64,000 nt of DNA from an uncultured Planctomycetales bacterium (GCA_964586235.1 CAZPIO010000008.1:19893-83892), one strand, 5' to 3'; shown: positions 24,571 through 43,124, counted from the first letter of the stretch. The notes: generated by a model from the sequence alone, not told the origin. Made by a program: numbers and translations.

Positions 24571-24575
24571 GGGAT

Positions 24576-25826: not shown

Positions 25827-25922
25827 TGTGGAGGTCGCCGCAGTGCTTGTGTCCGTGCTGGCTGCAAAAACGTATCGGTACCGACGCAGCCAGCACCTTT
25901 CGAATCACCCGGCCCCAGGAAC

Positions 25923-27149: not shown

Positions 27150-29009
27150 TCAGACGTTGAACGCCCGGCACCAGTGCTCGAACATCAGCAGCGACCATAT
27201 CTTGCGGCTGAAGTCGCGCATGCCCATGCCGTGCCCCCGAATGATGTCGGCGATTGCGTCGCGGGCCAGGTAGCGGGTGCATCTGCTGTTCGGAGACAGA
27301 AGAAGATCCATCGCGTAAGGCTGCAACTCATTGCGGAACCAGTGCTTGATCGGTATGCCGAAGCCCATTTTCCGGCGACCAAGAGTCTCCGAGGGAACGT
27401 GCGGCGCCAGCAATCGTTTGAGCAGATACTTCCCGCTGTTGTTCCGCATCTTCAGGTTGACGGGCATTGAATTGACAAGTTCGACAACGTGATGATCGAG
27501 GAGCGGAACGCGCACCTCCAGCGAATTCCGCATCGACATGCGGTCCACCTTGACCAGGATGTCATCGGGCAGGTAATTCTTCTGGTCGACATGCTGGCGG
27601 AGCGACACTTCGTCCCTTCCGTTGGCCTCCGCAAACTGCCGTTCAAAGCATCGGGCGGTTCTGGAGGCTACGTCGGCCCCGTGCCCGGCGAGTAAGGTTC
27701 GTCGGTCCGCGAGGGTGAACTCGCTCATCTCCGCCTGGTACCGCCCGAGACGGTCGTACCCGAATCGTTCCACCATCCCCCGGCCCCACAGGGTCTGCGG
27801 CATGACGGTCAACAGCAGCGTGCTGAGAACCTGCCGGGGCCGCAAGGGCACACCGTCCAGGCACCGGCGGAGACGTCCCTCTCGATAACGCGTGTAGCCC
27901 GCGAACGTTTCGTCCCCCCCGTCTCCGGACAGGCACACTGTCACGTGCCGTCTGGCCTCCCGGCAGATGTAGTAGGTGGGCAGCGACGAAGGATCACCGA
28001 AAGGCTCATCCAGATAGTAGGCCAGATCACTCAGCACGGAGATATCATCGTCCCGGACCGTGATTTCGTGGTGATCCGTGTGATAGCGCCCCGCCATCAG
28101 CCGGGCGTACCGCAGTTCGTCGAAGTCCGGCTCGTCGAACCCCACGGAGAACGTCTTAACGGGCGCGCCCAGTTCCTGGCTGGCCAGGGCAACTACCGCG
28201 CTCGAATCGATCCCACCGCTGAGAAAGATCCCCAGCGGCACGTCGGCCCGCAGACGGAGCCGGACCGCCTCCCGAAGGACCGCCTCCACCCGCTCTGCCC
28301 ACTCTTGCTCATCGCTGACGGTCTCGTCGACCCGGAAGTCCACATCCCAGTACTGCGTCATGGAAACGCGGCCGTTCTTCCACCGCATCCAGTGCCCTGG
28401 CGGCAGCTTCTCGATGCCCGTGAATATGGATCGATCCGTGGGCACGCACGTGTATGTGAGGTAATCATCCACGGCACCGATGTTGAGTTCTCGCGGGACG
28501 GCGGGGTCCTCGAGAATCGCCTTCAACTCGCTGGCGAAGACAAGTCGCCCGTCCCGAAGATGATAGAAGAGCGGTTTCTTGCCGAGACGGTCGCGAGCGA
28601 TGAAGACCGACTGGTCCCGGCCGTCCCAGACCGCCAGTGCACACATCCCCATGAAATGCTCGAGGCAGCCGGAACCGTACTGCTCGTATGCATGCACGAT
28701 CACCTCTGTGTCTGATTCCGTGCGGAATACGTGACCGAGCCGCTCCAGAGTCGTACGCAGTTCGCGATAGTTGTATATCTCCCCGTTCAGGACGACACCG
28801 ATCGAGCCGTCTTCGCTGTAAATCGGCTGGTCGCCCGTTTGCAGATCGATGATGCTCAAACGCCGGTGCCCCAGCCCGACGTTCCGCTTGACCAGGTATC
28901 CTTCGCCGTCCGGGCCACGATGGATCAGCCGCCGGGTCGCGCGCCGAAGCAGGTCTTCGTCGACTCGGCCAAGCGGATCGGCCTCGCATATGCCCACGAT
29001 GCCGCACAT
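27150..29009 (-). CDS. asnB: Asparagine synthase (glutamine-hydrolysing)-type amidotransferase, EPS/exosortase-system associated
   Basis: N-terminal nucleophile 'MCGIVGI', PP-loop 'FLSGGIDSSAVVA', full 619-aa length. Embedded between glycosyltransferases. Confidence 0.9.
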   Translation of the reverse strand: MCGIVGICEADPLGRVDEDLLRRATRRLIHRGPDGEGYLVKRNVGLGHRRLSIIDLQTGDQPIYSEDGSIGVVLNGEIYNYRELRTTLERLGHVFRTESDTEVIVHAYEQYGSGCLEHFMGMCALAVWDGRDQSVFIARDRLGKKPLFYHLRDGRLVFASELKAILEDPAVPRELNIGAVDDYLTYTCVPTDRSIFTGIEKLPPGHWMRWKNGRVSMTQYWDVDFRVDETVSDEQEWAERVEAVLREAVRLRLRADVPLGIFLSGGIDSSAVVALASQELGAPVKTFSVGFDEPDFDELRYARLMAGRYHTDHHEITVRDDDISVLSDLAYYLDEPFGDPSSLPTYYICREARRHVTVCLSGDGGDETFAGYTRYREGRLRRCLDGVPLRPRQVLSTLLLTVMPQTLWGRGMVERFGYDRLGRYQAEMSEFTLADRRTLLAGHGADVASRTARCFERQFAEANGRDEVSLRQHVDQKNYLPDDILVKVDRMSMRNSLEVRVPLLDHHVVELVNSMPVNLKMRNNSGKYLLKRLLAPHVPSETLGRRKMGFGIPIKHWFRNELQPYAMDLLLSPNSRCTRYLARDAIADIIRGHGMGMRDFSRKIWSLLMFEHWCRAFNV

Positions 29010-29028
29010 CAGATCACGTCCGATCGAA

Positions 29029-30249
29029 TCAACAGTCGCGGAAAAGACGCTCGAACTGAGGCATCACCGCCTCGACCGCGTGGTGTTCTCCGAAGTACTT
29101 GAGCGCATTGCGAGATACCCGGTTCCATGATGCCGGTGAGGCAAGCAACTGCCGGATCCCGGCGATGAGGGCCGGAACGTCACGGGCCGCCTCGCCGAGG
29201 CCCCGCTCAACTATGAGATCATCCGGATCGAAGGTCGACACAACCGGCACCCCGTGGCTCCATGCCTCAAGGAACGTATTCGGAAAACCCTCGAAGACCG
29301 ACGTGCAGCACAGCACGGCCGCACTTCGGTAGAACCCGCCCATCTCCGAGTGCGGCACTCGTCCGTGCATCCGTACGTTCGCGAGACCGTCAGCTCGCCG
29401 GAGGAGTGCCGAGACATACGCCGACTGAGTGTTGGCGCCGCCCACGACCGCAAACATGAGGTCGGGACACTGCTCCGCGATCTCCAGCAGCCATTCCAGC
29501 CTCTTCTCCTCGCTGATCCGGCCGACCCAGAGCACACAGCCTGGGTCCGCCGGCGACGGCCGAGGGGCTTCGCGCTGGCAGGCGTCGGGGACCTCGCACG
29601 GCATGGGGAGCACCGTGCTGGGTATGCCGAATCCCTCCCACAGCTTCTCCTGCTGGCCTCGGGTCTGAACGATGACACGGTGAGAGTGCCGCAATCCGTA
29701 CCGGTACAGGAATCGCTCCCGAAAGGGCTCGAGACAGGATAGCCGAGGATCGCAGGCCGGATCGCTGGCGACTGAATACACGACGGTCCGCCGGTATCGC
29801 CGACACCAGAGAGCGATCTGGCCGAGTCCGAGATCCCCGCAGTTGTAGTAGTAAAGGTCGGCGTCGGCCTTGCGCAATGCCCGGTGAAGACTCGTCCACC
29901 GTGGGTGAACGAACCGCAAGGTGGGCCAGCCGGCGTCCCGCCGGCACATCTTGATCACCCGCACGCCATCAATGACCTCTTCCGGCGGGCCGGCCTCATG
30001 CCACGTCACCATGCTGACCCGCCAGCCGCGCGACGCAAGCCATCGCGCCATAAGCGACTGCTGTCGCTCGATTCCCCCGATGTGGCCGGTGCAGGTGCGC
30101 GCCAACGCTCCGTAGGCGTTGTGCGCAACAAAACAGACACTGGGCGAGCCGGCCCTCTTCCGCCGGCCGACGGAACAAGCCCCGTCAGGCCCCATGGTCG
30201 GCACCTTCCCGGCGCTGCATTGCTTCACCTGGACGCGCGGACAAGTCAC
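29029..30249 (-). CDS. Glycosyltransferase family 4 (GT-B, group 1)
   Basis: 'VLCCTSVFEGFPNTFLEAWSHGVPVVSTFDPDDLIVERGLG' donor-binding motif. The start may be the internal ATG at 30195. Confidence 0.8.
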   Translation of the reverse strand: MTCPRVQVKQCSAGKVPTMGPDGACSVGRRKRAGSPSVCFVAHNAYGALARTCTGHIGGIERQQSLMARWLASRGWRVSMVTWHEAGPPEEVIDGVRVIKMCRRDAGWPTLRFVHPRWTSLHRALRKADADLYYYNCGDLGLGQIALWCRRYRRTVVYSVASDPACDPRLSCLEPFRERFLYRYGLRHSHRVIVQTRGQQEKLWEGFGIPSTVLPMPCEVPDACQREAPRPSPADPGCVLWVGRISEEKRLEWLLEIAEQCPDLMFAVVGGANTQSAYVSALLRRADGLANVRMHGRVPHSEMGGFYRSAAVLCCTSVFEGFPNTFLEAWSHGVPVVSTFDPDDLIVERGLGEAARDVPALIAGIRQLLASPASWNRVSRNALKYFGEHHAVEAVMPQFERLFRDC

Positions 30250-30282
30250 GAACCCTCTCCTCGCCGGTCATCGTTCGCGGGA

Positions 30283-31887
30283 TCACACGCTCTCGACGGT
30301 GAGTTGCCCGAAGGTGCGTCTCAACGCCCGAGCCGCCCTGCCCCGGAAGCTCGGCGGCACGACGAACCGCCAGTAAAGCAGCGACAGAATCAGCATCGCG
30401 CTGCCCGCGCCGAGCAGGAGCGCTCGATACGCGTTATCGGCACAGAACGCCCGCCCCAGGACCAGGATGACGGCGAACGGCACGGCACAAAGCAGCGGTC
30501 CACGGTTGATCTCGGAGAGGTAGCGGCGCAGCGGCATTCCGACCCTGCGGCATGCGTACAAGGGAACGTACACCCCATTCACGAGGGCCAGCGGCAGGGA
30601 TATTGAGACGGCAGCGCCGATCAGACCCCAGCGAAGCACGCCGACGGCCAGGACACCCAGTACCACCGAGCACAAAGCCGCTGCCAGGCCGGCAATCGCG
30701 AGCCGGCCGTGGGCGTTCAGTCCCGCAAGAATGCCCATCACCGGCTGCCGGGTCATTTCCGTCAGATGGCCTATCGCCAGGATCGCCAGCACCCAGCCCA
30801 ATTGGTACCTCGGCCCCATCCAGATATACAGTATCGGATCTCCCATGATAGCCAGCAGGAGCACGACAGGCAGCGACAGGTATGTCGCGAGACGAGAGGT
30901 CGTGACCAGCAGCGCCCGCAACTCCTCGCGTCGGTCGGCCGCCTGCAGTGATCCGGCCATCGGCGTCAGCACGAAGCCAAACTTGTTGATGAAGGTCTGG
31001 GCATGACTGACCAGCGATCGCGAGCGGGAGTACACCGCCAGGGGAGCCGGCCCGAGAACGGTCATAATAATCAGGCTGTTTGTCTGGTAGAGCAGGAGAC
31101 GCGAGAGACTGCCCGCCAGCGTCTTGCTGCCGAAGACCAGCATCTCCAATGCCTGACGCCAACGCACGTGCGACAGCCTCACGGACAGCCCCGGGCACAC
31201 GCGGTACGCCATCATGGCCCGGGTGATCTCGGTGGCGATGACGCCGATGAGATAGGCGGTTGCCTGGCTCCGCAGACCGCCGCCGGCGATCAACAGGCCG
31301 ATCATGGCGACGACTGTCAGTGCGTAGAACAGGGCGTTGATGCCGTTATGCAGGTCCCAGCGATGACAACCCGTGATGACTCCACGATACGAGTCGAAGG
31401 CCATCTGCACGGCCAGGCCCATGCCCAGAAGAAAGACCACCCAGCGGGCATCGCCGACCTGCTCGCGCAGTTGTCCGCTGAGCAGGGATGGAACCAGCCA
31501 GGTCGCCAGGCAGGTCAGCAGCAGGACGATCACCGTCGCCACCGCCTGCACACACATGACCGAGGCAACCGCCCGGTTGACCCCGGCCTGATCGCCCTGC
31601 GCCCGGTGCCGGGCAACGAATCTGTTGACCGAGGAACCGATGCCTCCCTGAGCAAGGCTGAGATAGCTCACCAGCGACCATCCGAAGTCCCATACGCCGA
31701 GGGCGGCCTGTCCGATGTGCCGATCCATGAACCGAGGCATCACGAATCCGGCAACGACGAACACCATCTGCCCGGCCCAACTGGCGAAGACATTCCACGC
31801 CATGCGCTCGCGACCGGTCAGGTCTTCGGCGGGCGGCGATGGCTGCCCGCTCGGATCAGGCAATGATTCGGTAAGGGGATCGGACAT
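30283..31887 (-). CDS. Polysaccharide/oligosaccharide flippase (Wzx-like, MOP superfamily)
   Basis: 534-aa protein with ~12-14 predicted TM helices across its length. Its position within the EPS operon fits this role. Confidence 0.75.
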   Translation of the reverse strand: MSDPLTESLPDPSGQPSPPAEDLTGRERMAWNVFASWAGQMVFVVAGFVMPRFMDRHIGQAALGVWDFGWSLVSYLSLAQGGIGSSVNRFVARHRAQGDQAGVNRAVASVMCVQAVATVIVLLLTCLATWLVPSLLSGQLREQVGDARWVVFLLGMGLAVQMAFDSYRGVITGCHRWDLHNGINALFYALTVVAMIGLLIAGGGLRSQATAYLIGVIATEITRAMMAYRVCPGLSVRLSHVRWRQALEMLVFGSKTLAGSLSRLLLYQTNSLIIMTVLGPAPLAVYSRSRSLVSHAQTFINKFGFVLTPMAGSLQAADRREELRALLVTTSRLATYLSLPVVLLLAIMGDPILYIWMGPRYQLGWVLAILAIGHLTEMTRQPVMGILAGLNAHGRLAIAGLAAALCSVVLGVLAVGVLRWGLIGAAVSISLPLALVNGVYVPLYACRRVGMPLRRYLSEINRGPLLCAVPFAVILVLGRAFCADNAYRALLLGAGSAMLILSLLYWRFVVPPSFRGRAARALRRTFGQLTVESV

Positions 31888-31926
31888 GGGAGAAGAGAGG
31901 CTGATTGCCGGTCGCTGTTTACATCG

Positions 31927-32919
31927 CTACTGATATCCGTAACGCCGGTTCGTCGCTCCCGCGACACGGTCGAAAACCGCCAGGTCATCCTTTGACAACG
32001 CACTCTTCCATCGTTCGTCAGGCCGGATCTCAGACGTCGAGTCGAGGCGCATGCCGTTGCCGATCACATGATGATCGACCGAACGGAAACCCCGCACCCA
32101 TCGGCTCGGGTCCAGGTCGAGGAAGTCAAGGATCCGGCGGAGTGTACCCTGAGGGTCGGCGCACAGCTCCTCGTAGCGCACTTCAACCCATCGCGAACGG
32201 TCCAAGCCACCGAGCACGTGCTCAACCTCCTCGTTGCTGCGGCGCCAGGCCAGGGCGGCCTGGGCCATGGACAGCCGCTCGGCGTCGCGATCGCCGCCCA
32301 TGCCGCCACCTCGCCTCTCCGGATTATTCGCGTCGGCAAACCGGGCCGGGTCCGTGTAGGTCAGCGCCACCGCCCGGCCGTCGCGGACCAGCCGGATCAC
32401 CTTCAAGTCGAACTCCGGACCGCGCAACAGATACTTGAGGCGAAGTGCAACCTTGGAGGAATCCACGACGGTCTTCGCACCGGTCAGCTCCCGGATGGCG
32501 TCGACCAGGGCCGCGTTTCGACGTCGTATCTCCGGAAACTGCGCCCGCCACACCGGGGACAGCCCGAGCGCGAAGTCCCGACATCGCTCGAACACGGCTC
32601 CCCTGTGCAGGGCTCCGGCCAGACGCCGCGTGAGCCCTCGACCGTTCAATCGGAAGTCGGTGCCCGCATGAGCAATGTCAAACGAGATCCCTCTGAGCCC
32701 CAGGGCGTCGCGAACACGGTTCCAGAACGGGCACTGACGGATGAACTCTCCGCACGAGCAACGGTAATGCTCGACGTCACCCAGACTCGTCGCTTTCAAC
32801 TCTCCGACGCTGCACACGTCCGGATGCGCATTCAGAAGCATGGCCAGCAACGTGGATCCGGAATGGCTGGCGGACAGGATGTAGGCGAGGCGGGTGATCG
32901 GCCTTGAGTTGTCAGACAT
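31927..32919 (-). CDS. Sulfotransferase family protein (PAPS-dependent)
   Basis: 5'-phosphosulfate-binding loop 'ILSASHSGSTLLAMLL'. Later 'VRLVRDGRAVALT' resembles the 3'-phosphate-binding region. I preferred the ATG at 32919 to the TTG at 32943. Confidence 0.75.
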   Translation of the reverse strand: MSDNSRPITRLAYILSASHSGSTLLAMLLNAHPDVCSVGELKATSLGDVEHYRCSCGEFIRQCPFWNRVRDALGLRGISFDIAHAGTDFRLNGRGLTRRLAGALHRGAVFERCRDFALGLSPVWRAQFPEIRRRNAALVDAIRELTGAKTVVDSSKVALRLKYLLRGPEFDLKVIRLVRDGRAVALTYTDPARFADANNPERRGGGMGGDRDAERLSMAQAALAWRRSNEEVEHVLGGLDRSRWVEVRYEELCADPQGTLRRILDFLDLDPSRWVRGFRSVDHHVIGNGMRLDSTSEIRPDERWKSALSKDDLAVFDRVAGATNRRYGYQ

Positions 32920-32953
32920 GGGGAGAGTCAGCGACCCACACAAGCAGCGATAC

Positions 32954-34624
32954 TCAGTTGCCCAATGGGCGTACCTGCACCATGCGGTAGTCCCAGATGG
33001 TGAATCGAACAGGCGGTTTCAACCACCGGCGAAGACCTTCCTGGTGATAGGGCTCCGACGCGTAGACCTCCCCTGCCGGCGACGGGCGGAGTTCATACCC
33101 CGGCCTGCCCGCCAACCGGGCCGGAAGCTTGATCCGGCGGTTGTCACGACGGTCAATCGGGACCTCATAGTCGACGATGTGCGTGACCCCGCAGTCAGCC
33201 AGGTACTCGGGCAACCGCCCCGCGCCGAGAGCTGCCTGGTACTCAAAGCCGTTGATGACACCGTCCAGATTGACCGTGGCCCTGCCGGAAAAGTAGCCGA
33301 AGTAACCCGCGTCCGTCATGGCAAAGACGGCGTTCTCGGGGGTGTGATTCCGGGCCCACATCGCCGCATCGCGCCATACCTCGCGACAGCCGTGACGCCA
33401 GAGATGCTCCACCACCAGTCCGGCCACGCCGGCGCATGCCAGCACGCACACAACGATCCAGCGGGTTGCACGTCCTGCGCCGCGCCTGCGCATCAGATCG
33501 CCGCATGCGGTTGCCACCATAACCGCGGCTACGGGCAGGTAACTGGCGAAATGCCACCATTGCACAAGGTGGTTCAAGAAGGCGACCGAGTAGACGAAGT
33601 GCATCACACAGCCGATCCACAAAACGGCCAGGAGCGAAACCTGGCGCGGCTGCGAGTGATCCTTCAGGAATGAAACGATGCGGTTCTTGAAGCTCTGGTG
33701 CGAGATCGCTACCCAGGCGACGGTTCCCGCGATGAACACCGCCGACGCCAGCCACCAGGGGTGAACGAGCCTGTGAAAGTCCGTACACGGGCGCGGAAAA
33801 GTGCTCTTCAAGGCCCCCGAAATCGGCATGATGTGACCCGTGGACAAGATATTCCAGAGAATATAGGGGGCCGTAAGGATCAGAAAGATCGCCAGCACGG
33901 GGGCACATCCGGCGACGGCGGCAACCACGCTGCGCCAGGCGGGAGAACGGCCGAGATACAGGCAGGCTACACCCGCGAAGATCGCCGCGACGATGAACGC
34001 CATGTCCAGCCTGCCCAGGAAGAGCATCGCGCAAAGCACACCGAGCAGGGCCTTCCTCGAAAACGGCATGGGAACGCTCAGGAGTCTCATCCGCTGATCG
34101 AGGAGAAGCAGCAGGAACAGGATGAACAGCAGCAGACCCGTTTCCAGTCCGTTAAGAAAGACCCGGCTCGCAACCGGATTCACCAGGATAAACAGCGCGA
34201 TCGCACCTGCGAGTCTTCCTGCGCGCGCGCTGACGTACGCCCAGCACATCAGGAGGGTTCCGCCCGCGAGCAATGTGGAGAGCACGGACACAAGCCGGAT
34301 CGGCAGATCGGGGTCATCGGGGCAGGCGGCAAAAATCGGTAGAATGACCCCCATCCAGAGAGGATGAAAGCCGTTGGTGCGGTTGATCCCGTCAAAAGTG
34401 ACGCCGTGTCCGGCCACGATGTTCTGCGCCGTCTTGAAGTAGTAATACGCATCGTCACTGGCGTAGACCGAGACGTCATCAATGGGCGCGTATGCAAGCC
34501 ACACCAGGCGTGCGGCGACGAGGCCGATGATCAGAACCGCCACGAACAGGTTGACCGGGGCCGGTCGAACCGCGCTTCCGGCTGGTGATGCCGTGGTCAT
34601 ACTGGCTGCCGCTATGCCGGGCAT
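32954..34624 (-). CDS. Polytopic membrane protein with C-terminal soluble domain; possible GT-C-fold glycosyltransferase
   Basis: At least 10 hydrophobic helices. An early loop 'YASDDAYYYFKTAQN' resembles the acidic first-loop motif of GT-C enzymes. The ~130-aa C-terminal domain is non-membrane. The functional call is tentative. Confidence 0.5.
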   Translation of the reverse strand: MPGIAAASMTTASPAGSAVRPAPVNLFVAVLIIGLVAARLVWLAYAPIDDVSVYASDDAYYYFKTAQNIVAGHGVTFDGINRTNGFHPLWMGVILPIFAACPDDPDLPIRLVSVLSTLLAGGTLLMCWAYVSARAGRLAGAIALFILVNPVASRVFLNGLETGLLLFILFLLLLLDQRMRLLSVPMPFSRKALLGVLCAMLFLGRLDMAFIVAAIFAGVACLYLGRSPAWRSVVAAVAGCAPVLAIFLILTAPYILWNILSTGHIMPISGALKSTFPRPCTDFHRLVHPWWLASAVFIAGTVAWVAISHQSFKNRIVSFLKDHSQPRQVSLLAVLWIGCVMHFVYSVAFLNHLVQWWHFASYLPVAAVMVATACGDLMRRRGAGRATRWIVVCVLACAGVAGLVVEHLWRHGCREVWRDAAMWARNHTPENAVFAMTDAGYFGYFSGRATVNLDGVINGFEYQAALGAGRLPEYLADCGVTHIVDYEVPIDRRDNRRIKLPARLAGRPGYELRPSPAGEVYASEPYHQEGLRRWLKPPVRFTIWDYRMVQVRPLGN

Positions 34625-36012
34625 GGGTGGCCCTCCGATCTTGCGGCTGCCGGGCGCACCGGCCACGGTATGCCGCTGGCCACCGTGGAAATCCTGCACT
34701 TTTCGCGGTGCAGGCGAAGCGTCAGCCCGATGGCAGCCCACATGCCCACGGCCCACTGGCGGGGGTAGAACGAGTGGCTGCCCATCGAAGCGACGAGCAG
34801 GGCCAGCACCAGCGCGCAGGTTATCCCGCCGACCACCGCGCACCAGGGCTCACGAGAGTCGAGAAAGAGCCGCATCGCGTAAGCCGTCACAAGGATATAG
34901 AACACGATCACCGGTACGAATCCCGCAAGGCCATTGTCCAGAAGGCATTCGAGATAGGCATTGTGCGGATGGTTGAAGTAGAGTCCCTGACTGTCGGCGT
35001 TGAGCCCGGTCCGGATCATCGCCTCGCGACCATAACCGGTTCCCGGCGATTCCATGATCTTGTCAATCACGCTCGGCCAGATCAACAATCGGTCCGACGT
35101 GAGCTCCGCGTGGTCCAGTGTCTTTTCACCGGTCGCGCTGGTGACACCAACACCTTGCAGCATCCTCTCGGCCACGCCCGGCATGGCGATCGCCACCGCA
35201 ATCGGGATCAGCGGGGCAATCAACAGCATCCGGCGCCACTTGAACAGGCACAATATCAGCCCGACGATACCCCACGTGACATAACCCATGCGGCCACCGG
35301 TCAGCGCCTGGGCGTAGGCGACGATCGCAAAAGCGGCGAAAACGAGCACCTGTTGCCATCGCCGTTTCATCAGCGGCATGGTGGCCAGCACGGCCCAGGA
35401 TGCGCCGGCCAGCAGCATGGACACGGTGACCCGACTGTAGCCGATGTTCTTCTGGATGGGCGCGCTCACCATTTCCGCCAGTTCATCCCCGCCGCGAACC
35501 GCCGCGCCGGGAGGCACCTGCCTGATCACCTGGACAGCCAGCAGGAGGTACAGCGCTACGATACATCCGACTGCCCACTTCAACCGCGGACGTGTCCTGC
35601 AGCCGTCAAACAGCAGCAGGCCCGGAATGACCCATTTGACGCTGTTGATCAGATACTCCGTCAACAGATCCAGAAAAGTGAAATACTCGATGCCTGTGGG
35701 ATCGACCATCATCCGGACGAGGCTGACTACAATAACCCCGAGGTACAACAGGAGCAGGGCCGTCATGTGTCGCGGCATGTCCCAGACGAGCCCCTCCCGC
35801 CTGCGCGTGACGACCCAGACCAGCAGGATGACGACCATGAGCAGATTCCACGGGTTCAGACCCGGGATACCCATGATCTTCTTGGGCATGTCTGGGTGCT
35901 CGATCACCGCCATGAGCAGGATCAGCCCGCACAGCGACTTGTACCAGTCGCGCCAGGCGTAGATCGCCAGAGCGATCACCAGCAGTGTCAGTAGAACGAT
36001 GCGAATGGACAT
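34612..36012 (-). CDS. O-antigen ligase/polymerase-like (Wzy_C) membrane protein, exosortase-system associated type
   Basis: 466-aa multi-TM protein. N-terminus 'MSIRIVLLTLLVIALAIYAWRDWYKSL' and a large periplasmic loop are typical of the O-glycosylation-ligase-like proteins found in PEP-CTERM EPS loci. Confidence 0.7.
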   Translation of the reverse strand: MSIRIVLLTLLVIALAIYAWRDWYKSLCGLILLMAVIEHPDMPKKIMGIPGLNPWNLLMVVILLVWVVTRRREGLVWDMPRHMTALLLLYLGVIVVSLVRMMVDPTGIEYFTFLDLLTEYLINSVKWVIPGLLLFDGCRTRPRLKWAVGCIVALYLLLAVQVIRQVPPGAAVRGGDELAEMVSAPIQKNIGYSRVTVSMLLAGASWAVLATMPLMKRRWQQVLVFAAFAIVAYAQALTGGRMGYVTWGIVGLILCLFKWRRMLLIAPLIPIAVAIAMPGVAERMLQGVGVTSATGEKTLDHAELTSDRLLIWPSVIDKIMESPGTGYGREAMIRTGLNADSQGLYFNHPHNAYLECLLDNGLAGFVPVIVFYILVTAYAMRLFLDSREPWCAVVGGITCALVLALLVASMGSHSFYPRQWAVGMWAAIGLTLRLHREKCRISTVASGIPWPVRPAAARSEGHPCPA

Positions 36013-36021
36013 GGGCGATGG

Positions 36022-38391
36022 TCAACTGGCGGCGTCGACGGTCTCCTCGGTGTTTTCGTAACCGTATCCATAGCCGTAGCCGTAACCGTAGCCGTAGCCA
36101 CCGAGGCCATGGTGGCCGCCAACAAGGATCGTCCCCAGGAGTGTGCCCCCCGAGGCGCTCAGATAAGCGTACGCCTGGGTGGCCTCAGGCCGGCGGCAGT
36201 GCCGGGCTTTCAGGACCATCACTGTCCCGTCCACCTGCCGGGCAAGCATCCCGGCATCGGCCACCACCAGGACCGGCGGCCCATCGAGAAGAATCAGGTC
36301 ATATTGTTGTTTCCATCTCTTCAGACATTTCGACAGAACACCGTTTCCGAGCGATTCCGTGTTGAAACCCTCGGGCCTCTCGCCGGCCAGGAGCAGGTCG
36401 AGCCCGCTGGCCTCGTCGTGGACGATCGGATCGCCACTATGAGCCAGACCGGCCAGCAGGGTAACCAGCCCCTTGTCCTGCTCGAGGCCGAGCCGCCGGC
36501 CCAGACACGGACGTCGCAGATCAACCTCGACCAGAAGAACCTTCTTCCCAAGCTGCACGACGCTTCTGGCCAGCAAAACCGAGACGCTGGTCTTTCCCGT
36601 TTGCGGAGTCGGGCTGGTCACCAGGATCACCGGAGCCTGCATGCCCTGCAGGTGCTCCAGCAGGGTCGTGCGGATCATGCGGATGCTCTCCAGCAGCGCG
36701 GCGGGAGAGTTGGCGATCGGGTCAACCGGGAATGGCGATTGGCACACCTGCCCAAGGAACGGCACCCGAAGGCTCTTGGTCACGTCGCCGGCCTCACGGA
36801 TGGTCGTGTCTGCATTTCCTCGCAGATAGGCGAGGGCTATCCCGGCCAATAATCCCCCGACAACCGCCCCAACGGTCATGAGTATCCGCCGGTCGTTGCT
36901 GGGTTCCGCGGGCAGCAGACCGTGGGAAGCGATCTGGATCCGGGCCGGTCCCTTGCCTTCGACCTGCAGTTCCTCGATTCGGGCCGCGATGGCCCCGCTG
37001 ACTTCGACGTTCTTGCTGGTTTTCGCGTCGAGGTCGGCTATCTGCCGGGAGACTTCGCCGACCTCCTTCAGCTCGGCCCGTACTTTCTTGATATCCTCAT
37101 CGAGCAGCTTCAGCTTCTGCTCATGCTCCTGCGCGAGGACCTCAAGAGCAGCCTGGTCGGGTGTCCCCGCCAGGCCCGGGGTCCCGGCCGATCCGGCGAT
37201 CCTTGCCGCCTGCTGGTCCGCGCGGAGTTGTTCCTCCCGCTCCTGCCTGAGCTGTTCCACGAACCGCAGTTGAGCCTGGAGCTCCTTCATTCTCGGATGG
37301 GCTTCCGCCAGTTTCTCGGCGGCGCGCTCAATCTCATAGCGGGCCCTTTTGACTTCCAGGTTGCGAGCCCTCCAGTCGGCGTCGTACACGTACCAGCCGG
37401 CGGAGGACCCGGCCGGGGCCGTCGCGGTCGCCGGATCCGCCGTGACGGCGGCCGGCTGACTGGCGGCAGATGACAACCTGCCAAGCTGCCACCGGACGAC
37501 GTTGAGACTCCGCTCCACCTCGCCGAATTCGAACTCCAGCTTCCGCAGGTCCGTGCCAAGCTGGGCCCGGCGCTGTTCCGAATCGACGGCACCCATCTGC
37601 CTGAGGAACAGGAATTTCTGGTCCCTGAGACCGGCGATCATCCGCTCGCGGTCATTCCGCTCGGCCTTCAGGGTCTCAATCAGCGTGGAGTCGCGATTCC
37701 TCTCCTGGCTGTCACTGATGGTCTGATACTCGTCTACCACGGCATCAACGATGATCTGCGCGTCAGAGGCCTTCAGTGTGCTGATGGACACGTCGATCAG
37801 TTCCGTTTGGGGCCGCACCTGAACCTTGAGGTCGTCCCTCAGCCGGTTCAGACGCGGTACGGGGTCGCCCCAGAGCGAGCGCCGTTCCGCCTTGTACCAG
37901 TCGGTCTTCTGGACGTCGCTGCGGTCGAGCACGCGTTCGAGAACGCGCGGATCGCGAATCAATGAGACCTGCGTGTTCAGGAAGCTCTGATACAGCGGCA
38001 CGATCCCGTTGTCTTCGGTCTTGAACACGATCCGGGAAACCACCGGCGACACCCGAACGACCGCCGTCGACTGGTAGGTCGGTTTGATGAAAACCCATAT
38101 CGGCGGAATGGCAAGGACGCAAACCGCCAGGCATATGCCGCCGATCAACCACTTCTGCCGGAGCAGCATCGGGGCGATGGATCGGCTCGCGGGCGCCCGC
38201 TCTCCGGACGGGGAGTTGAGAAGCAGGCTGCCGCCCTCCTGCTCCGGCTGAGGCGGCATTTCAGGCTCGTGTGCCGGCGTGAGCGGCGCGAGAGGGCCGC
38301 CGGAACCCACGATCGTCGATTCGCTGTTGTCGGAAGGCATTGAAATATACTCCTGGTCTCGTTTTACCCTCGGCAGTTCGTCACTTGTCAT
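36022..38391 (-). CDS. Polysaccharide co-polymerase fused to bacterial tyrosine (BY) kinase (Wzc/GumC-like)
   Basis: Wzz-type N-terminal TM plus a long coiled-coil periplasmic region and a second TM. Kinase motifs are Walker A 'TSPTPQTGKTSVS', A' 'VLLVEVDLRRP' and B 'DLILLDGPPVL'. The C-terminal Tyr cluster is 'GGYGYGYGYGYGYGYEN'. ATGA overlap with the stop of the upstream GT26 gene. Confidence 0.9.
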   Translation of the reverse strand: MTSDELPRVKRDQEYISMPSDNSESTIVGSGGPLAPLTPAHEPEMPPQPEQEGGSLLLNSPSGERAPASRSIAPMLLRQKWLIGGICLAVCVLAIPPIWVFIKPTYQSTAVVRVSPVVSRIVFKTEDNGIVPLYQSFLNTQVSLIRDPRVLERVLDRSDVQKTDWYKAERRSLWGDPVPRLNRLRDDLKVQVRPQTELIDVSISTLKASDAQIIVDAVVDEYQTISDSQERNRDSTLIETLKAERNDRERMIAGLRDQKFLFLRQMGAVDSEQRRAQLGTDLRKLEFEFGEVERSLNVVRWQLGRLSSAASQPAAVTADPATATAPAGSSAGWYVYDADWRARNLEVKRARYEIERAAEKLAEAHPRMKELQAQLRFVEQLRQEREEQLRADQQAARIAGSAGTPGLAGTPDQAALEVLAQEHEQKLKLLDEDIKKVRAELKEVGEVSRQIADLDAKTSKNVEVSGAIAARIEELQVEGKGPARIQIASHGLLPAEPSNDRRILMTVGAVVGGLLAGIALAYLRGNADTTIREAGDVTKSLRVPFLGQVCQSPFPVDPIANSPAALLESIRMIRTTLLEHLQGMQAPVILVTSPTPQTGKTSVSVLLARSVVQLGKKVLLVEVDLRRPCLGRRLGLEQDKGLVTLLAGLAHSGDPIVHDEASGLDLLLAGERPEGFNTESLGNGVLSKCLKRWKQQYDLILLDGPPVLVVADAGMLARQVDGTVMVLKARHCRRPEATQAYAYLSASGGTLLGTILVGGHHGLGGYGYGYGYGYGYGYENTEETVDAAS
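36058..36099 (-). repeat. Hexanucleotide (TAC-GGN)x7 microsatellite encoding the (YG)7 tail of the BY-kinase
   Basis: Plus-strand 'gta acc gta tcc ata gcc gta gcc gta acc gta gcc gta gcc', read directly. Confidence 0.9.
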
Positions 38392-39149
38392 TGTGCCGGC
38401 TGCCGCAACCTTGACTTGAGAACATCGAACACGAACAACGGCAGCACCGCTTGTCTGGCCAATCTTCCGGGCTGAACCATCAGGCGATACAGGAACTCCG
38501 TTCCCGTTCGTCGGAAGAGGCGCGGTGCCCGCCGGGCTTTTCCACTGAGGACGTCAAAACTCCCACCTACCCCCATGCAGAAGGGCACGGCGAGAACCGC
38601 CCGATTCCTGGCGATCCAGTACTCCTGCCTCGGAGAACCGAGCGCCACAAAGAGCAGGTCGGCCTTGCTGTTGTTGATCCTGTCAACCAGGCCGGCATCG
38701 TCCGGCTGATAGCCATGTTCAGCACCTGCGATCCGCAGGGTCGGATACCTGTCGACGAGCGCCGCACGAGCACCCTCGTTGGATTCGGGCGAAGCGCCGT
38801 AGAGAAAAATGGACCAGCTTTCGACGGACGCGGCACGGGCCAGCTCCAGGAAAAAATCGACGCCCGTGCAGCGCCGAAGCCTGTGCCCATAGAGCACCCG
38901 CGCGGCGATCGCGACGCCGATACCGTCGCATATCCCAACCTCGAATCCGTTCAACGCGGAGCGCAAGGCCGGGTCGCGCGTCGCATGCATGATCTTCTCG
39001 GGGTTGATGGCCACGGCGCATCTCCGCGAACGCTCCCGGATACCCCCGGCGACGCAGTCAACGGCCTCCTGATACGAGGCAAAGGGCGTGACGGAAACAC
39101 CCATGATCCGCAGGGGCTGGGGCAGAGAATTGGACTGGGCCACGCTCAT
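38388..39149 (-). CDS. WecB/TagA/CpsF-family glycosyltransferase (GT26)
   Basis: 'AINPEKIMHA', 'ICDGIGVAIAAR', 'LLFVALGSPRQEYW' and 'MGVGGSFDVLSGKARRAP' are characteristic GT26 blocks. The ATG at 39149 has an AAGGAG SD. Confidence 0.85.
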   Translation of the reverse strand: MSVAQSNSLPQPLRIMGVSVTPFASYQEAVDCVAGGIRERSRRCAVAINPEKIMHATRDPALRSALNGFEVGICDGIGVAIAARVLYGHRLRRCTGVDFFLELARAASVESWSIFLYGASPESNEGARAALVDRYPTLRIAGAEHGYQPDDAGLVDRINNSKADLLFVALGSPRQEYWIARNRAVLAVPFCMGVGGSFDVLSGKARRAPRLFRRTGTEFLYRLMVQPGRLARQAVLPLFVFDVLKSRLRQPAQ

Positions 39150-39197
39150 CGCTCCTTTCAAAGTGACGGGGTCAGTCGCGCAAGGCTGGTTCGCGGA

Positions 39198-40778
39198 TCA
39201 CGTCGGCTGGCGCAGCGGCCAGGAGGGTGGAGTTTCCTTTTCATTCCGTCGCCGCCGGCTCTCAACGCGAACCCCGTTGTGCCCGAGCGGGCGCAGCCTG
39301 GAGTGTGCCGGACCACCGCCGGACACCGGGACGTCAACATCAGGAGGCATGGCGAATTCGTCGATGAGACGGTTGAAGAGGGTCACTCGCCGTCCCGCCG
39401 ACTCAAGAGAACCGTTCTGCTTGACCGTGGCCTCGATCTGGAGCGGGCAGGACCTGGGGCTGTGGTTAAGGGGCACCACGATACGCATGCCGACGGGCGT
39501 CGCTCCGTTACGCTCCGTGCAGCGCCAGGTCCGTATGCGGCGGTCCGGATGGCCCCGGCTCCTGGTCAGCGATATTTCGACAAACGCAAGCCCCTCGGCA
39601 GCCCTGCACACCGCCCCCCACCACGCCTCAAAAGACACCGCCTCACGCAACAGGAGCTGCATCATCTCGAATCGCCGTTTCTCTTCCTTCCTCTCGCTGG
39701 CCATCGTGAAGTTGCGCCGGGCCACCGCCAGGCTGTCGCCAAGCCTCACCGCTCCAAAAAAGCGGAATGCGAAGAGCAGGAAACATATCGCGACCCCGAA
39801 AATCAGCAGCGTCAGCCTGTCATGAACGATCATCATCAGCATGCCGGTACCGGTTGCCGCCAGAGTCACTCCGTACAGGACCAGCACGGCCTGCCGATGG
39901 GCAAGACCGCGCTCCAGGAGCCTGTGGTGTATGTGACGGCGATCGGGCGCGAACAAGGACCTGCGCTCCAGAACTCGCCGCAGCATGCTGAAGAGAGTGT
40001 CGAACAGGGGAACGCCCAGGGCGATCAGCGGAAGGCCCAGGCCGGCCACGGTGGCGTACTTCGCGCCTGAAAGCATACTGCAGCCCGCGACGGCAAAGCC
40101 CAGGAAGAGGCTTCCGCAGTCGCCCAGGAAAATCCTGGCCGGGTTGAAATTGAAGACCAGAAAGCCGATCAGGCTTCCCAGAAACGCAAGCATGAATACG
40201 GATGCGATAGGCAGCGATGCATGTATGGAGATCATTGCGATGACGCCGCAGGCGACCGCGGAGATGCCGGCAGCCAGGCCGTCGAGGCCGTCGATGAGGT
40301 TGACCGCGTTGGTGATCGCCGTCACCCATAGGATCGTGGCGAACAGCGAAAACCATCCGAGATCGATGACCAGGTTCTCGGTCAGGCCGATGGAGTCGAT
40401 TCGCGTACCCGACAGGTAGAGGATCACGGCGGCAACCACCTGCGCAAGCAGCTTGTGACGGGCCCTAAGGCCGACAACATCATCGACAAGCCCGACCGCG
40501 AAAATGAACAAGCCCGCCCCCAGCAGCGCGAAGACCTGCAGTTGCAGGGCATTAAAAGCGTTTCCGACGGGGTTCTGCAGAAGGAGGACGGGGAGCGTGG
40601 CGGCTGTGACCGCGATGAGTATCACCAGACCGCCGAGACGAGGAATTTCTGATCGATGGACCTTGCGCGGGCCCGGTTTGTCCACCACGCGTGTTCGTCG
40701 GGCAAACCGAATGACCAGTGGCGTAGCCAGCATCGACACGATCATCGCTATGAGGAAAACAACAGTGTAGGTTTTCAT
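39198..40778 (-). CDS. Polyprenyl-phosphate HexNAc-1-phosphate transferase (MraY/WecA family) with ~180-aa C-terminal extension
   Basis: 'VVDKPGPRKVHRSEIPRLGGL', 'NAVNLIDGLDGLA' and 'GDCGSLFLGF' are WecA/MraY family motifs. The protein is 526 aa, against ~350-370 aa for typical WecA. The tail after the last TM helix has no motif I recognise. Confidence 0.85.
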   Translation of the reverse strand: MKTYTVVFLIAMIVSMLATPLVIRFARRTRVVDKPGPRKVHRSEIPRLGGLVILIAVTAATLPVLLLQNPVGNAFNALQLQVFALLGAGLFIFAVGLVDDVVGLRARHKLLAQVVAAVILYLSGTRIDSIGLTENLVIDLGWFSLFATILWVTAITNAVNLIDGLDGLAAGISAVACGVIAMISIHASLPIASVFMLAFLGSLIGFLVFNFNPARIFLGDCGSLFLGFAVAGCSMLSGAKYATVAGLGLPLIALGVPLFDTLFSMLRRVLERRSLFAPDRRHIHHRLLERGLAHRQAVLVLYGVTLAATGTGMLMMIVHDRLTLLIFGVAICFLLFAFRFFGAVRLGDSLAVARRNFTMASERKEEKRRFEMMQLLLREAVSFEAWWGAVCRAAEGLAFVEISLTRSRGHPDRRIRTWRCTERNGATPVGMRIVVPLNHSPRSCPLQIEATVKQNGSLESAGRRVTLFNRLIDEFAMPPDVDVPVSGGGPAHSRLRPLGHNGVRVESRRRRNEKETPPSWPLRQPT

Positions 40779-41045
40779 GGCTGCAGATCCATTCTGAAAT
40801 AGACGGCGGTCGTAGTCGGCTCAAGAAGCTGAAAGCGGGCGGTCCCCGGCAGACTTGCCCGGCATGTCGTGATCGCGGTTCAGGGTCTGGTGATGGGGAA
40901 GCATGCAGCGGCCTTCTGCCCAGGCGCCTCGGGAGGCCTCACCCTCCCCACCAGACCCCCAGCCGTACGTGCGCTGTGGTCAGCGATCCGGACGATCCTG
41001 TCGCACACGCTTATCCCGGACCGGCCGGCCCGGTGTGCTGTTACC

Positions 41046-43124
41046 TCATACAAGCTGGCTCTGGCCGTGCATGCCTCGGCTGCGCAGGGCCGGTCGCCGG
41101 ACGGGATCACTGAAAGCGATCACGCTTCGCAGAGCAGTGTTGCCGTCGACCGTGCATCGTGCGACAAGCGTTACGGTCGGAGTCTTCCTGTGGTATCCGT
41201 CACTCACCCACCCCCCGATGGGCGCCTCGCTCCCTTCCAGCGTGTGAATCACCAGCCGCTCATCGAGTTCGAAGATCAACTGTCCGGCGCCCGTGTCCAC
41301 GGCGAACCTGTTCGCTTCGTGCTCGAGGACGCGGCATTGCGGGGCGAGGTGGAAGAACAGCTTCACCTCATGTTGCCCGGCCGTGATGAGCTCATCGAGG
41401 ACCGACAGGCTGCGGGCGGCGCCGTCCAGTTCCAGCCGGCGCCTGTGAATCACCGGCGACTTGAGACGCGTGTAGCCGTCATGCTCGCCGACGACCGTCC
41501 CCCCGTTAGCGCTGACCTCAAAGTGCAGACACCGGGCCCGAGCCCGTGCACCCCACAAGAAACGCCCGGCCATGACAGATTGATCGCAGTCATCGACCAG
41601 AAGCGTATTGTGAGCTCTGGTGCTCCGGAAATACTCCCGCCAGGCCGGAAAGCGGAAGTAGTCATACGTTCCGGGGTCCACCAGCACCGGCGTGCCGGAC
41701 AGGCGCAAGGTGAAGCTCAGCGCGTCGGCATGGCCGTGACCGGCCAGGGGCGGCAGTCCAAGCTCGCCACAGTCAAAAACGACGCTCATACAGCCGTCGC
41801 GGCCTGCTTGCCCATGCTGCAGCACGTAATACCCGGTTTGTGGAAAGCCCTTGCTGGACAGCCGGCCATCCCATGCCCTTTTGTCGTCGTACACAAGCCG
41901 TTCATATGCCTCCCGGCCGAGCGACCACAGGACCGATTCACCGGATCTGGACGCCAACGCCCTGAAATCGCTGCGATCCCACAAGGCTGCTCCTACCGCC
42001 AGCAGGCTTCGAACGCGGTCACCGCCTTCTCCGAGATCCAGCACGTACCCATCGTCACAGTCGCCGAGCATCGGCGGCCCGTCACCACCTTCGGTCAGCG
42101 CGGCCAGGAAACCGAACATCCTCCCCAGCCGTTCCCAATAAGATGGCGGGAAATCGCAGCCGCAGTTCCGAGCCGCCAGTCCTGCCACCAGAAAGAACTC
42201 GAGTACAAACAGGTGGTACCCCATTGACAACTCGCGGTGGCCGCCGTCCTCGTGCGTTTGCGTCTGCATTTCTCGCAGCAGAATCGCGCGGGCCTCCTGC
42301 CTCCAGGCATGCGCCCCACGAAAGCCGGAGAAGTAACAACTGCCTACGAACACGCCGGCCGCTTCGCCGACCAGATGGTTGCCTACGGAGGAATAGCGCG
42401 AGTACTTCCTGGATATCTCCCACAGATGACGATACACCGCTGTCAGCAGCCTGGCCTGGAAATCGTCGCTGAGCCGCAGCGCCGGCCGAATCAGCTCCAG
42501 TGCCCAGACCCAGTTGATCAGGCGAATGGCCAGCTCCAAGGGGCTTCGCCAGTTCATCCCGCGACCAAACGGGCATTGTTGCAGCCAGCTCTCCAGGTGC
42601 TCAATGACCTTGTGAGCGTAAGTCGGGTTGCCGGTGAGCCGGTAGGCGCGGCCCAGTACCACCAGGTGCTGATGCCGGTTGAGCTCCCACACCAGCTTGG
42701 CATCTCCGGTCAAAGCGTAGTCACGATAGTCGATCGCCGCGGCAGACCCGAGCGGAGTCGGTTGCTGAGCCTCATACTCGTAGTTCCAGTTCAGGGGACG
42801 CTGCCCTGGCACATCCAGGATGCTGAGGAAACGCAGGTGATTCCCGCAGATCGTGTCAGCCCGCGCGATCAGAGCGGCACGCCACCCGTCGGCTCCCGGC
42901 AAATCCTTCAGTTGTTCTGACGACGGGAGCTGTCTCAGCACGTCTGGGCATGTGGGATCTCCATTACAGCCGGCCGTTGTAAGACGTCCAGGGGAGATCG
43001 GCCTGGCCCGCAACCACAGCAGACACCGGTCTGTCCAAGCCTGGATCGCAGCCCCGGCGCGCCAGCAGACCTCCGCGGGCGACATGAACCTGAGCCGGCG
43101 AGCGTACCACTGCAAAGACTGCAT
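41046..43124 (-). CDS. Heparinase II/III-family protein (alginate-lyase-like N-domain plus Hepar_II_III C-domain)
   Basis: 'NWRSPLELAIRLINWVWAL', 'VGNHLVGEAAG' and 'GHGHADALSFTL' are family hallmarks. The ATG at 43124 has a GGGAGGA SD. Confidence 0.85.
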   Translation of the reverse strand: MQSLQWYARRLRFMSPAEVCWRAGAAIQAWTDRCLLWLRARPISPGRLTTAGCNGDPTCPDVLRQLPSSEQLKDLPGADGWRAALIARADTICGNHLRFLSILDVPGQRPLNWNYEYEAQQPTPLGSAAAIDYRDYALTGDAKLVWELNRHQHLVVLGRAYRLTGNPTYAHKVIEHLESWLQQCPFGRGMNWRSPLELAIRLINWVWALELIRPALRLSDDFQARLLTAVYRHLWEISRKYSRYSSVGNHLVGEAAGVFVGSCYFSGFRGAHAWRQEARAILLREMQTQTHEDGGHRELSMGYHLFVLEFFLVAGLAARNCGCDFPPSYWERLGRMFGFLAALTEGGDGPPMLGDCDDGYVLDLGEGGDRVRSLLAVGAALWDRSDFRALASRSGESVLWSLGREAYERLVYDDKRAWDGRLSSKGFPQTGYYVLQHGQAGRDGCMSVVFDCGELGLPPLAGHGHADALSFTLRLSGTPVLVDPGTYDYFRFPAWREYFRSTRAHNTLLVDDCDQSVMAGRFLWGARARARCLHFEVSANGGTVVGEHDGYTRLKSPVIHRRRLELDGAARSLSVLDELITAGQHEVKLFFHLAPQCRVLEHEANRFAVDTGAGQLIFELDERLVIHTLEGSEAPIGGWVSDGYHRKTPTVTLVARCTVDGNTALRSVIAFSDPVRRPALRSRGMHGQSQLV

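Follow-up and report, generated by a model that had tools for sequence, protein, structure and literature searches.

Sulfated extracellular polymers have been measured in a variety of microbial aggregates, yet the bacterial genes known to underlie them are essentially those for synechan, a cyanobacterial polymer, and those of a few isolates of marine origin. Synechan is made by the xss cluster of Synechocystis sp. PCC 6803 through a Wzx/Wzy-dependent route, with sulfotransferase genes among those of the cluster and the gene for the outer-membrane exporter at another site (PMC8205485). Pontiella sulfatireligans F21, a member of the PVC superphylum, encodes many sulfatases; its putative sulfated-glycosaminoglycan cluster, rich in glycosyltransferases, includes a PF13469 sulfotransferase, and chemical detection of a sulfated exopolymer is on record (PMC7356697). 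The sulfated capsules of Vibrio and Cobetia also belong to the described sulfotransferase clusters (PMC11641403, PMC11766843). Sulfated exopolysaccharides (EPS) have also been reported from sludge and mats, the responsible sulfotransferases not being identified (PMC10483923, PMC9723792); in the sludge studies, reference sulfotransferases give few matches and the responsible enzymes are stated to be unknown (PMC10483923). The present analysis concerns a sulfotransferase gene embedded in a polysaccharide operon of an uncultured Planctomycetales bacterium, carried on a stretch of 64,000 nucleotides (the window), to whose positions all coordinates refer. On balance, this locus probably encodes a Wzx/Wzy-dependent line for a surface polysaccharide or EPS with built-in sulfation, lying inside a larger exosortase/PEP-CTERM locus.

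The operon consists of 14 co-directional genes on the minus strand, from 43124 down to 21639, and is roughly 21 kb long in a window of about 63% G+C. Adjacent genes overlap or are separated by at most 40 nt, except for a 267-nt gap after the PL12-like gene and a 96-nt gap before the gene for GT4c. Domains were called with Pfam and NCBIfam on the open reading frames (ORFs) of the window, Pfam being run on all ORFs of at least 200 aa, and functional assignments throughout are based on homology and gene order. An earlier note on positions 27150–43124 had named the main activities of this region, and Pfam and NCBIfam agree with them at their coordinates on the minus strand. Its gene list stands, but its extent falls short: the GT-C gene at 32954–34624 was unnamed, and the genes at 21639–27140 were outside its range. 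The operon runs about 5.5 kb past 27150, to 21639, with two more GT4 glycosyltransferases, a DUF362 protein, and an AMP-ligase. The 14 genes are as follows.

41046–43124, minus strand: PL12 heparinase-III-like protein (Hepar_II_III_N, 2.5e-33; Hepar_II_III_C, 4e-56)
39198–40778, minus strand: WecA-type polyprenyl-phosphate N-acetylhexosamine (HexNAc)-1-phosphate transferase, the initiating enzyme (PF00953 Glycos_transf_4, 1.5e-39)
38388–39161, minus strand: GT26 glycosyltransferase of the WecG/TagA/CpsF family (PF03808 Glyco_tran_WecG, 1.1e-54)
36022–38391, minus strand: Wzc-type co-polymerase/tyrosine autokinase (Wzz and AAA_31 BY-kinase domain)
34612–36012, minus strand: Wzy_C-family membrane protein, presumed repeat-unit polymerase (PF04932, 6.5e-16)
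32954–34624, minus strand: GT-C-fold membrane glycosyltransferase, ArnT/PMT/OST-like (fold search and distant homologs)
31927–32919, minus strand: sulfotransferase of the 3′-phosphoadenosine-5′-phosphosulfate (PAPS) fold (Sulfotransfer_3, 1.6e-15; Sulfotransfer_1, 1.3e-7)
30283–31887, minus strand: Wzx-type flippase (PF13440 Polysacc_synt_3, 7e-14; weak match to NF041503 WZX_like)
29029–30249, minus strand: GT4 glycosyltransferase GT4a (Pfam GT4/Glycos_transf_1)
27150–29009, minus strand: glutamine-dependent AsnB-family amidotransferase (GATase_7; Asn_synthase PF00733, 1.8e-106)
25923–27140, minus strand: GT4 glycosyltransferase GT4b, stp2-like (Pfam; TIGR03088, 187.8 bits against a cut-off of 409)
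24576–25826, minus strand: GT4 glycosyltransferase GT4c (Glycos_transf_1, 1.4e-29)
23068–24648, minus strand: DUF362 protein (PF04015, 7.8e-31)
21639–23291, minus strand: PaaK/F390-synthetase-like AMP-forming ligase, the last co-directional gene (NF045666, 111 bits; PaaK-like matches)

The annotated start of the DUF362 gene is probably too far upstream. Promoter and terminator scans at the operon ends gave counts no higher than those of shuffled controls.

The sulfotransferase was modeled with AlphaFold (AF2), with a predicted local distance difference test (pLDDT) score of 85.9 and a predicted template modeling score (pTM) of 0.88. The top Foldseek matches are all PAPS sulfotransferases with a probability of 1.00, including 4gox/4gbm, TPST1/2, Stf9, Stf1, Stf0, and heparan sulfate 3-O-sulfotransferase (HS 3-OST); cytosolic SULTs also appear among the matches, and template modeling (TM) scores reach 0.65 for TPST1/2. 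A phmmer search of the PDB pairs the first motif with the P-R-S-G-S-T loop found in the sulfotransferase domains of CurM and OLS. Among 30 homologs of 57–81% identity, S18-H-S-G-S-T23, E40, and R179-D-G-R182 are invariant, and T187 is near-invariant. The confident fold and the conservation of both PAPS-binding motifs bear out the PAPS-type assignment of the earlier note. Loss of the PAPS-binding residues had been proposed as grounds for refutation; the motifs are kept, so the reading is not refuted.

Related loci were compared by tblastn with the window proteins and by clustering of all ORFs. The genome scan used one genome per GTDB species; 80 loci were kept and counts are given over 76 loci, many of them partial, with mechanical ORF calling and with taxon labels taken from the metagenome-assembled genome (MAG) records. 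The sulfotransferase has more than 2000 database homologs, the nearest named relatives being MAGs of Phycisphaerae/Planctomycetota, and 177 species-representative genomes encode it. Most carriers are Planctomycetota, accompanied by Vicinamibacteria and other Acidobacteriota, Verrucomicrobiota, Desulfobacterota, Steroidobacteraceae, tubeworm endosymbionts, other Gammaproteobacteria, Nitrospirota, Fibrobacterota, and Binatia. Outside one close relative (L004, 82%), sulfotransferase identity is 53–66%. The view that EPS loci with a dedicated sulfotransferase are uncommon is contradicted by these homologs and genomes and by a syntenic core shared across many phyla. Far from being a rarity, this core probably represents a common, as yet unstudied way in which bacteria make sulfated slime.

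The consensus gene order is Wzc – PHPT or WecA – (Wza) – u392 – WecG – Wzy_C – sulfotransferase – Wzx – GT4a – GT4d – u415 – GT4c – (AsnB) – (DUF362 – AMP-ligase). On the same strand, the sulfotransferase gene directly follows Wzy_C in 67 of the 76 loci and directly precedes Wzx in 52, in at least eight phyla. Besides Wzy_C (67) and Wzx (52), the loci contain GT4a (43), u415 (38), WecG (37), u392 (33), Wzc (32), and PHPT (24); less frequent are polysaccharide deacetylase (15), UDP-GlcNAc 2-epimerase (13), the AMP-ligase (12), the PL12-like protein (11), WecA and AsnB (10 each), DUF362 (9), and Wza (8). GT4a is 46–65% identical across phyla. At least nine loci have DUF362 behind GT4c, and at least 12 have the AMP-ligase behind DUF362. 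Desulfopila aestuarii DSM 18488, a cultured carrier, has a WecB-PHPT-WecG-Wzy_C-sulfotransferase-Wzx core. In L001/L004, the window's closest relative, the operon is the same except that AsnB is absent. In the window, tblastn found no u415, u392, PHPT, Wza, or WecB.

When metagenome loci were instead seeded with Wzy_C, the sulfotransferase was present in 44 of the 60 with enough flanking sequence, immediately downstream in 39; where it is missing, Wzx directly follows Wzy_C. Its presence in most but not all Wzy_C loci, with Wzx closing up otherwise, indicates a plug-in tailoring gene. An obligatory partnership with Wzy_C was considered and rejected, as about 27% of the Wzy_C-seeded loci are without the sulfotransferase. 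The priming enzyme also varies: in 24 loci (e.g., L069:4806-6461), WecA is replaced by a PHPT of 540–550 aa with a Bac_transf domain and an N-terminal left-handed β-helix (hexapeptide) region. Since Wzy_C, the sulfotransferase, and Wzx stay in place, the priming enzyme appears to be interchangeable. Two proteins of the consensus cluster, u415 (38 of 76 loci, e.g., L005:18331-19578) and u392 (33 of 76, e.g., L070:1064-2242), belong to no Pfam family; u392 shows 54% mean column identity, and a PDB profile search with it gave no match.

Several observations weigh against a sulfated polysaccharide product. The nearest structural neighbors of the sulfotransferase are the CurM/OLS acyl carrier protein (ACP) sulfotransferases and the tyrosylprotein sulfotransferases (TPSTs), not the heparan-sulfate sulfotransferases; HS 3-OST structures rank 38th and below in Foldseek (E about 5e-4), behind both groups. 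The substrates of these nearest enzymes are protein tyrosine or the hydroxyl of an acyl-ACP instead of sugars. The 5′-phosphosulfate loop (S-H-S-G-S-T) carries an invariant His19 where the CurM sulfotransferase has Arg. For PAPS synthesis, tblastn with approximate probes of E. coli CysC and CysD was negative in the window and 83 loci. An approximate E. coli Ugd probe and a scan for the motif GG.C[LFIV]..D found no credible UDP-sugar 6-dehydrogenase in the same sequences. The N-terminus of the PL12-like protein has no hydrophobic signal-peptide stretch, a poor fit to a periplasmic lyase. Neither Pfam on ORFs of at least 200 aa nor tblastn with the Wza of related loci detected Wza/Poly_export in the 64-kb window. 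The absence of Wza, which had been noticed before, poses no problem because relatives have Wza in the cluster and synechan uses a distant outer-membrane polysaccharide export (OPX) gene. In sum, the Wzy-dependent, HexNAc-initiated heteropolymer proposed earlier holds at the gene level, and its sulfation is predicted from the genes with somewhat better than even confidence.

The structural neighbors also suggest that the sulfotransferase might have a different substrate, be it a protein tyrosine, a lipid, or some small molecule, and be merely co-located with the polysaccharide genes. In line with this, no carbohydrate sulfotransferase family model of NCBIfam matches the protein, and its 3′-phosphate motif VRDGRAVALT resembles the TPST motif VRDGRASVHS. 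Given those neighbors, it is the gene context and not the protein that points to a sugar acceptor. In dozens of loci, however, Wzy_C and Wzx flank the gene, all three on one strand; start and stop overlap with Wzy_C in some of them (L003), and no candidate peptide substrate or polyketide synthase (PKS) gene is conserved nearby. An acceptor other than the polysaccharide is regarded as very unlikely.

A related concern is whether the protein is catalytically altered, i.e., inactive or adapted to another donor or chemistry. At the position of His19, TPST has Arg and the cytosolic sulfotransferases have Lys, and a His in place of Arg/Lys in the phosphosulfate loop means that activity or donor could differ. 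In addition, a Cys54-x-Cys56...Cys63 cluster (Y-x-C-S-C...C-x-F-W) that is atypical of sulfotransferases is invariant in the clade and lies in a lower-confidence loop of the model; it is possibly a metal or disulfide knob. Against this, His19 and both PAPS motifs are invariant in the 30 homologs, indicating purifying selection on a working site, and the fold is confidently that of a sulfotransferase. Altered catalysis is thus considered extremely unlikely.

The remaining assembly-line enzymes define a Wzx/Wzy polysaccharide locus with high confidence. An initiating transferase, a Wzx, a Wzy, and a polysaccharide co-polymerase of type PCP-2a with a tyrosine autokinase are all present, in agreement with the earlier Wzx/Wzy/Wzc-type description (PF13440, PF04932, and Wzz plus kinase domain). 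The WecA-type enzyme scores 131 bits with TIGR02380, under the cut-off of 326, and its translation keeps D99-D100, NLIDGLDG at 160 (NxxNxxDGxDG), and H282-IHH, the last of which is associated with the recognition of UDP-GlcNAc by E. coli WecA. HexNAc initiation, followed by GT26, is accordingly upheld by intact DD, NxxNxxDGxDG, and HIHH motifs. The enzyme is extended at its cytoplasmic C-terminus by about 180 aa (residues ~345–526) that match nothing in Pfam or NCBIfam; its L001 relative is 499 aa long. The GT26 enzyme reaches 152.7 bits with TIGR00696, over the cut-off of 69, and probably adds the second sugar, ManNAc or ManNAcA. Wzc matches TIGR01007 with 102.7 bits and keeps the Walker boxes A (GKTS at 599), A′, and B; its C-terminus is the GYGYGYGYGYGYGY tail, a GYGYGY tail with seven tyrosines, and the Tyr cluster is at 765–778. 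The Wzy_C protein is 38–64% identical across phyla with an invariant HPHNAY motif and had no match in a PDB sequence search. Its polymerase role is presumed, as sequence alone does not separate a polymerase from a ligase.

The earlier note had further described the polymer as acidic, amidated, and glycosaminoglycan (GAG)-like, i.e., as a partly amidated and sulfated polymer of HexNAc and uronic acid. Some features are consistent with this. A WecA–GT26 pair can give ManNAcA-GlcNAc, as in enterobacterial common antigen (ECA), and the AsnB homologs WbpS and WbtH amidate GalNAcA in some O-antigens. The best solved homolog of the PL12-like protein is the Bacteroides heparinase III 5jmd (1.9e-25), with which it shares N249-H250 (GNHL 248), Y303-H304 (YHL 303), and H463; the aligned Asn, Tyr, and His are the catalytic positions of PL12, and lyases of this fold act on uronates. 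The HepC equivalog score is 95.8 against a cut-off of 700, so the protein is a family member and not a heparinase ortholog, with a predicted lyase- or epimerase-like action on a uronate-containing glycan. AsnB is intact, with a Cys2 nucleophile and an SGGIDSS pyrophosphatase loop at 264. In some related loci, the protein c45 has a borderline C-terminal match to glucuronyl C5-epimerase (PF06662, 23.1 bits against a cut-off of 23.3).

On the other side, no UDP-sugar dehydrogenase was found in the window or the 83 loci, WecB and WecC are not in the window, and GT26 enzymes add ManNAc as well as ManNAcA. The acidic character, for which the PL12-like protein and AsnB are the only hints, is therefore weakened. 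The same is true of amidation: the best model for AsnB is the XrtA-system amidotransferase TIGR03108, but its score of 654.6 bits is below the cut-off of 816.9. AsnB and the lyase are accessory genes that vary independently, occurring in 10 and 11 of the 76 loci, respectively, and together in only four. The five glycosyltransferases plus the GT-C enzyme of the operon imply an oligosaccharide repeat instead of a disaccharide, and the window has no GAG synthase of the GT2 type; with the CurM/OLS and TPST affinities of the sulfotransferase, these results speak against a GAG-like assignment in the strict sense. An acidic and amidated product is doubtful, a truly GAG-like one highly improbable, and the combination of all these properties in one polymer distinctly unlikely.

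Beyond the operon, the window contains the following features.

43689–44285, minus strand: NusG-paralog antiterminator of the UpxY/RfaH/LoaP type (NusG, 9.3e-9; UpxY, 73.7 bits with a cut-off of 100; RfaH, 53.7 bits)
43135–43521, minus strand: truncated N-terminus of an IS5-family transposase (DUF4096, 6.2e-21; NF033580, 76 bits against a cut-off of 110)
17758–21513, plus strand: 1251-aa protein with PKD, He_PIG, thrombospondin-3, and right-handed β-helix (pectate-lyase-like) domains
16546–17325, minus strand: EpsI-family exosortase partner (PF11984, 2.2e-23; TIGR02914, 50.2 bits, above the cut-off of 42.8)
15487–16503, minus strand: exosortase (PF09721, 6.6e-58; TIGR02602, 153.2 bits, above 105.55)
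12868–13512 and 13505–14698 (12868–14698 overall), minus strand: two proteins with a PEP-CTERM-variant sorting signal (C-termini read)
6919–11484, minus strand: PrsT-like giant tetratricopeptide repeat (TPR) protein (TIGR02917, 214.7 bits against a cut-off of 312.2)

The exosortase scores 161.5 with the XrtA-specific model TIGR03109, under 208, and the XrtD (VPLPA-CTERM) model scores almost equally. The two sorting-signal C-termini are near-identical, VP(A/V)P(A/G)AVLLGL(I/L)GF(G/S)LIGW(I/V)KRRF, with VPxP replacing PEP, and score 16.8 and 13.9 bits with PF07589, under the cut-off of 20.7. The gene for the 1251-aa protein, which runs in the other direction, separates the polysaccharide operon from EpsI and the exosortase; L057 has these two immediately after the AMP-ligase. 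Exosortase as a general neighbor of the core was rejected, being found within 10 kb in one other locus only; several planctomycete loci stop at DUF362/AMP-ligase, where the exosortase would come next. No PrsK/PrsR was found in the window when the histidine-kinase/sigma-54 regulator pair was sought, as noted earlier.

At the other end, homologs of the antiterminator (40–42% identity) lie upstream of WecA in the planctomycete loci L025 and L058, which, by analogy to Bacteroides capsule loci, suggests operon-specific antitermination. The IS5 remnant is located 10 nt upstream of the PL12-like gene, between it and the antiterminator gene, and may have cut the operon off from the leader it once had. 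Farther away, 53879–62482 (plus strand) is a catabolic-looking block encoding a GH65-C-like protein, a formylglycine-type sulfatase (PF00884, 6.8e-41; SGSH_C domain), an unassigned 525-aa protein, and a six-hairpin glycosidase-like protein; it recalls Pontiella, a degrader and maker of sulfated glycans.

The GT-C protein has an NCBI counterpart of 556 aa with 100% identity, and its distant homologs carry PF13231 or are named GT39. It has no Pfam or NCBIfam match and none in a PDB sequence search, and only the fold search resolved its identity. The AF2 model (pLDDT 89.1) shows about 13 helices followed by an α/β domain, and the first 26 Foldseek ranks are all GT-C enzymes (STT3, AglB, PglB, AftB, ArnT, DPY19, and ALG9/12). 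A multi-span N-terminal module, an acidic DD motif (D57-D58 in DDAYYYF, invariant), and a soluble C-terminal domain are all present; on its modeled fold, the protein is a GT-C glycosyltransferase. Generally, GT-C enzymes act on the outer membrane face with a polyprenyl-linked donor. The gene is a lineage-specific add-on, because it occurs in only two of the 76 loci.

The fold of this protein and the exosortase neighborhood raise the possibility that the glycan is an oligosaccharide moved to proteins (e.g., the VPxP/PEP-CTERM proteins) or to lipid, with the Wzy_C protein as a WaaL/PglL-type ligase or the GT-C enzyme as an oligosaccharyltransferase. Indeed, the Wzy_C Pfam family also holds O-antigen ligases and O-oligosaccharyltransferases, and the identity of the Wzy_C protein across phyla is far above that of typical Wzy polymerases. 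The best Foldseek E-values of the GT-C protein are to the STT3/AglB/PglB oligosaccharyltransferases, and the operon runs into an exosortase/EpsI/PEP-CTERM block both here and in L057. However, Wzc here and Wza in relatives are hallmarks of polymer export that need a polymerase, for which Wzy_C is the only candidate in the consensus locus. The best TM-scores of the GT-C protein are to ArnT and AftB, not to oligosaccharyltransferases, and both its rarity and that of a nearby exosortase disfavor a general role in protein glycosylation. Transfer to protein or lipid is therefore unlikely.

For the preferred sulfated Wzx/Wzy product, a working scheme can be outlined, in which the gene functions follow from homology and we infer the step order and substrates. 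The WecA-type enzyme would transfer HexNAc-1-phosphate, probably GlcNAc, to undecaprenyl phosphate, the GT26 enzyme would attach ManNAc or ManNAcA, and the three GT4 enzymes would lengthen the repeat to about five sugars. With PAPS at hand on the cytoplasmic face, the sulfotransferase would place a sulfate ester there on a single sugar of the lipid-linked repeat, and AsnB may turn a carboxylate into an amide. Wzx would then flip the unit, the Wzy_C protein would polymerize it, and Wzc would govern polymerization and export, with an outer-membrane exporter encoded elsewhere taking the polymer out. The GT-C enzyme may add a periplasmic decoration from a polyprenyl-phosphate sugar, and the PL12-like protein may trim or epimerize a uronate-containing polymer. 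The UpxY/RfaH-like antiterminator probably permits read-through of the operon.

The window by itself would be an ordinary polysaccharide operon with one interesting, putative sulfation tailoring step. From the breadth and synteny of the core, the cluster becomes a candidate source of the sulfated EPS in sludge and mats. We tentatively propose, at less than even confidence, that the core is an unrecognized, horizontally spread pathway behind much of the chemically detected, sulfated GAG-like material of sediments, granular sludge, and biofilms, coupled in planctomycetes to exosortase-sorted proteins. If true, the sulfotransferase would serve as a marker gene for predicting sulfated-EPS producers in metagenomes and, as a compact tailoring enzyme, could be used to engineer polysaccharides that bear sulfate. 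The carriers include at least one cultured strain, D. aestuarii DSM 18488 (L068). Literature searches found no paper describing the Wzy_C–sulfotransferase–Wzx–GT4 core, a sulfotransferase together with exosortase/PEP-CTERM or Phycisphaerae EPS, or a heparinase II/asparagine synthase/glycosyltransferase cassette, and no NCBIfam model names the window sulfotransferase, Wzy_C, or GT-C protein.

Among known systems, the nearest annotated plasmid homolog of the sulfotransferase (about 30% identity, full length) belongs to a pSymB cluster of Sinorhizobium meliloti (L084, CP050512.1 1517734-1542645). This cluster holds cysQ, ATP-grasp, formyltransferase, pectate lyase, an O-antigen-ligase-domain protein, GT4, and a sugar transferase in a different gene order; to our knowledge, its product is uncharacterized. 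The WecA-WecG (ECA) and TagO-TagA (wall teichoic acid) pairs share with the window a PNPT HexNAc-1-P transferase and a GT26 enzyme. Yet, the window scores are far under the equivalog cut-offs (131 vs. 326; 142 vs. 323), WecB/WecC are missing, and WecA is extended by about 180 aa.

The XrtA/PEP-CTERM EPS loci (PMC1569441, Haft et al. 2006) have in common with the window an exosortase, EpsI, PEP-CTERM-type proteins, a PrsT-like TPR protein, an AsnB-type amidotransferase, an stp2-like GT4, an AMP-ligase, and a tyrosine kinase. In the window, however, the models specific for XrtA, PrsT, the amidotransferase, and stp2 stay under their cut-offs, the signal is VP(A/V)P and not PEP, the primer is of the WecA type and not the usual PHPT, and PrsK/PrsR are not encoded; the described system, in turn, is without a sulfotransferase. 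The Pontiella cluster differs in its gene set (GT2/GT4, TuaB, VioA, YfhO, and GtrA), with exosortase unmentioned. Both it and the window cluster are known from genes, and the link to a polymer is putative in both.

The closest characterized analog is synechan, which shares the Wzx/Wzy/PCP machinery, a sulfotransferase within the cluster, several glycosyltransferases, and a distant exporter. The xss cluster differs in its priming enzyme, its eight glycosyltransferases, and its two sulfotransferases, and is without the WecA/GT26 pair, AsnB, PL12-like protein, GT-C enzyme, and exosortase neighborhood seen here. Synechocystis is missing from the genera that the tblastn summary over plasmids lists for the window sulfotransferase, so the two enzymes are, by this indirect comparison, not close. 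Collectively, the locus joins the already described bacterial Wzx/Wzy clusters with a sulfotransferase, and what goes beyond the earlier note is the breadth and synteny of its core.

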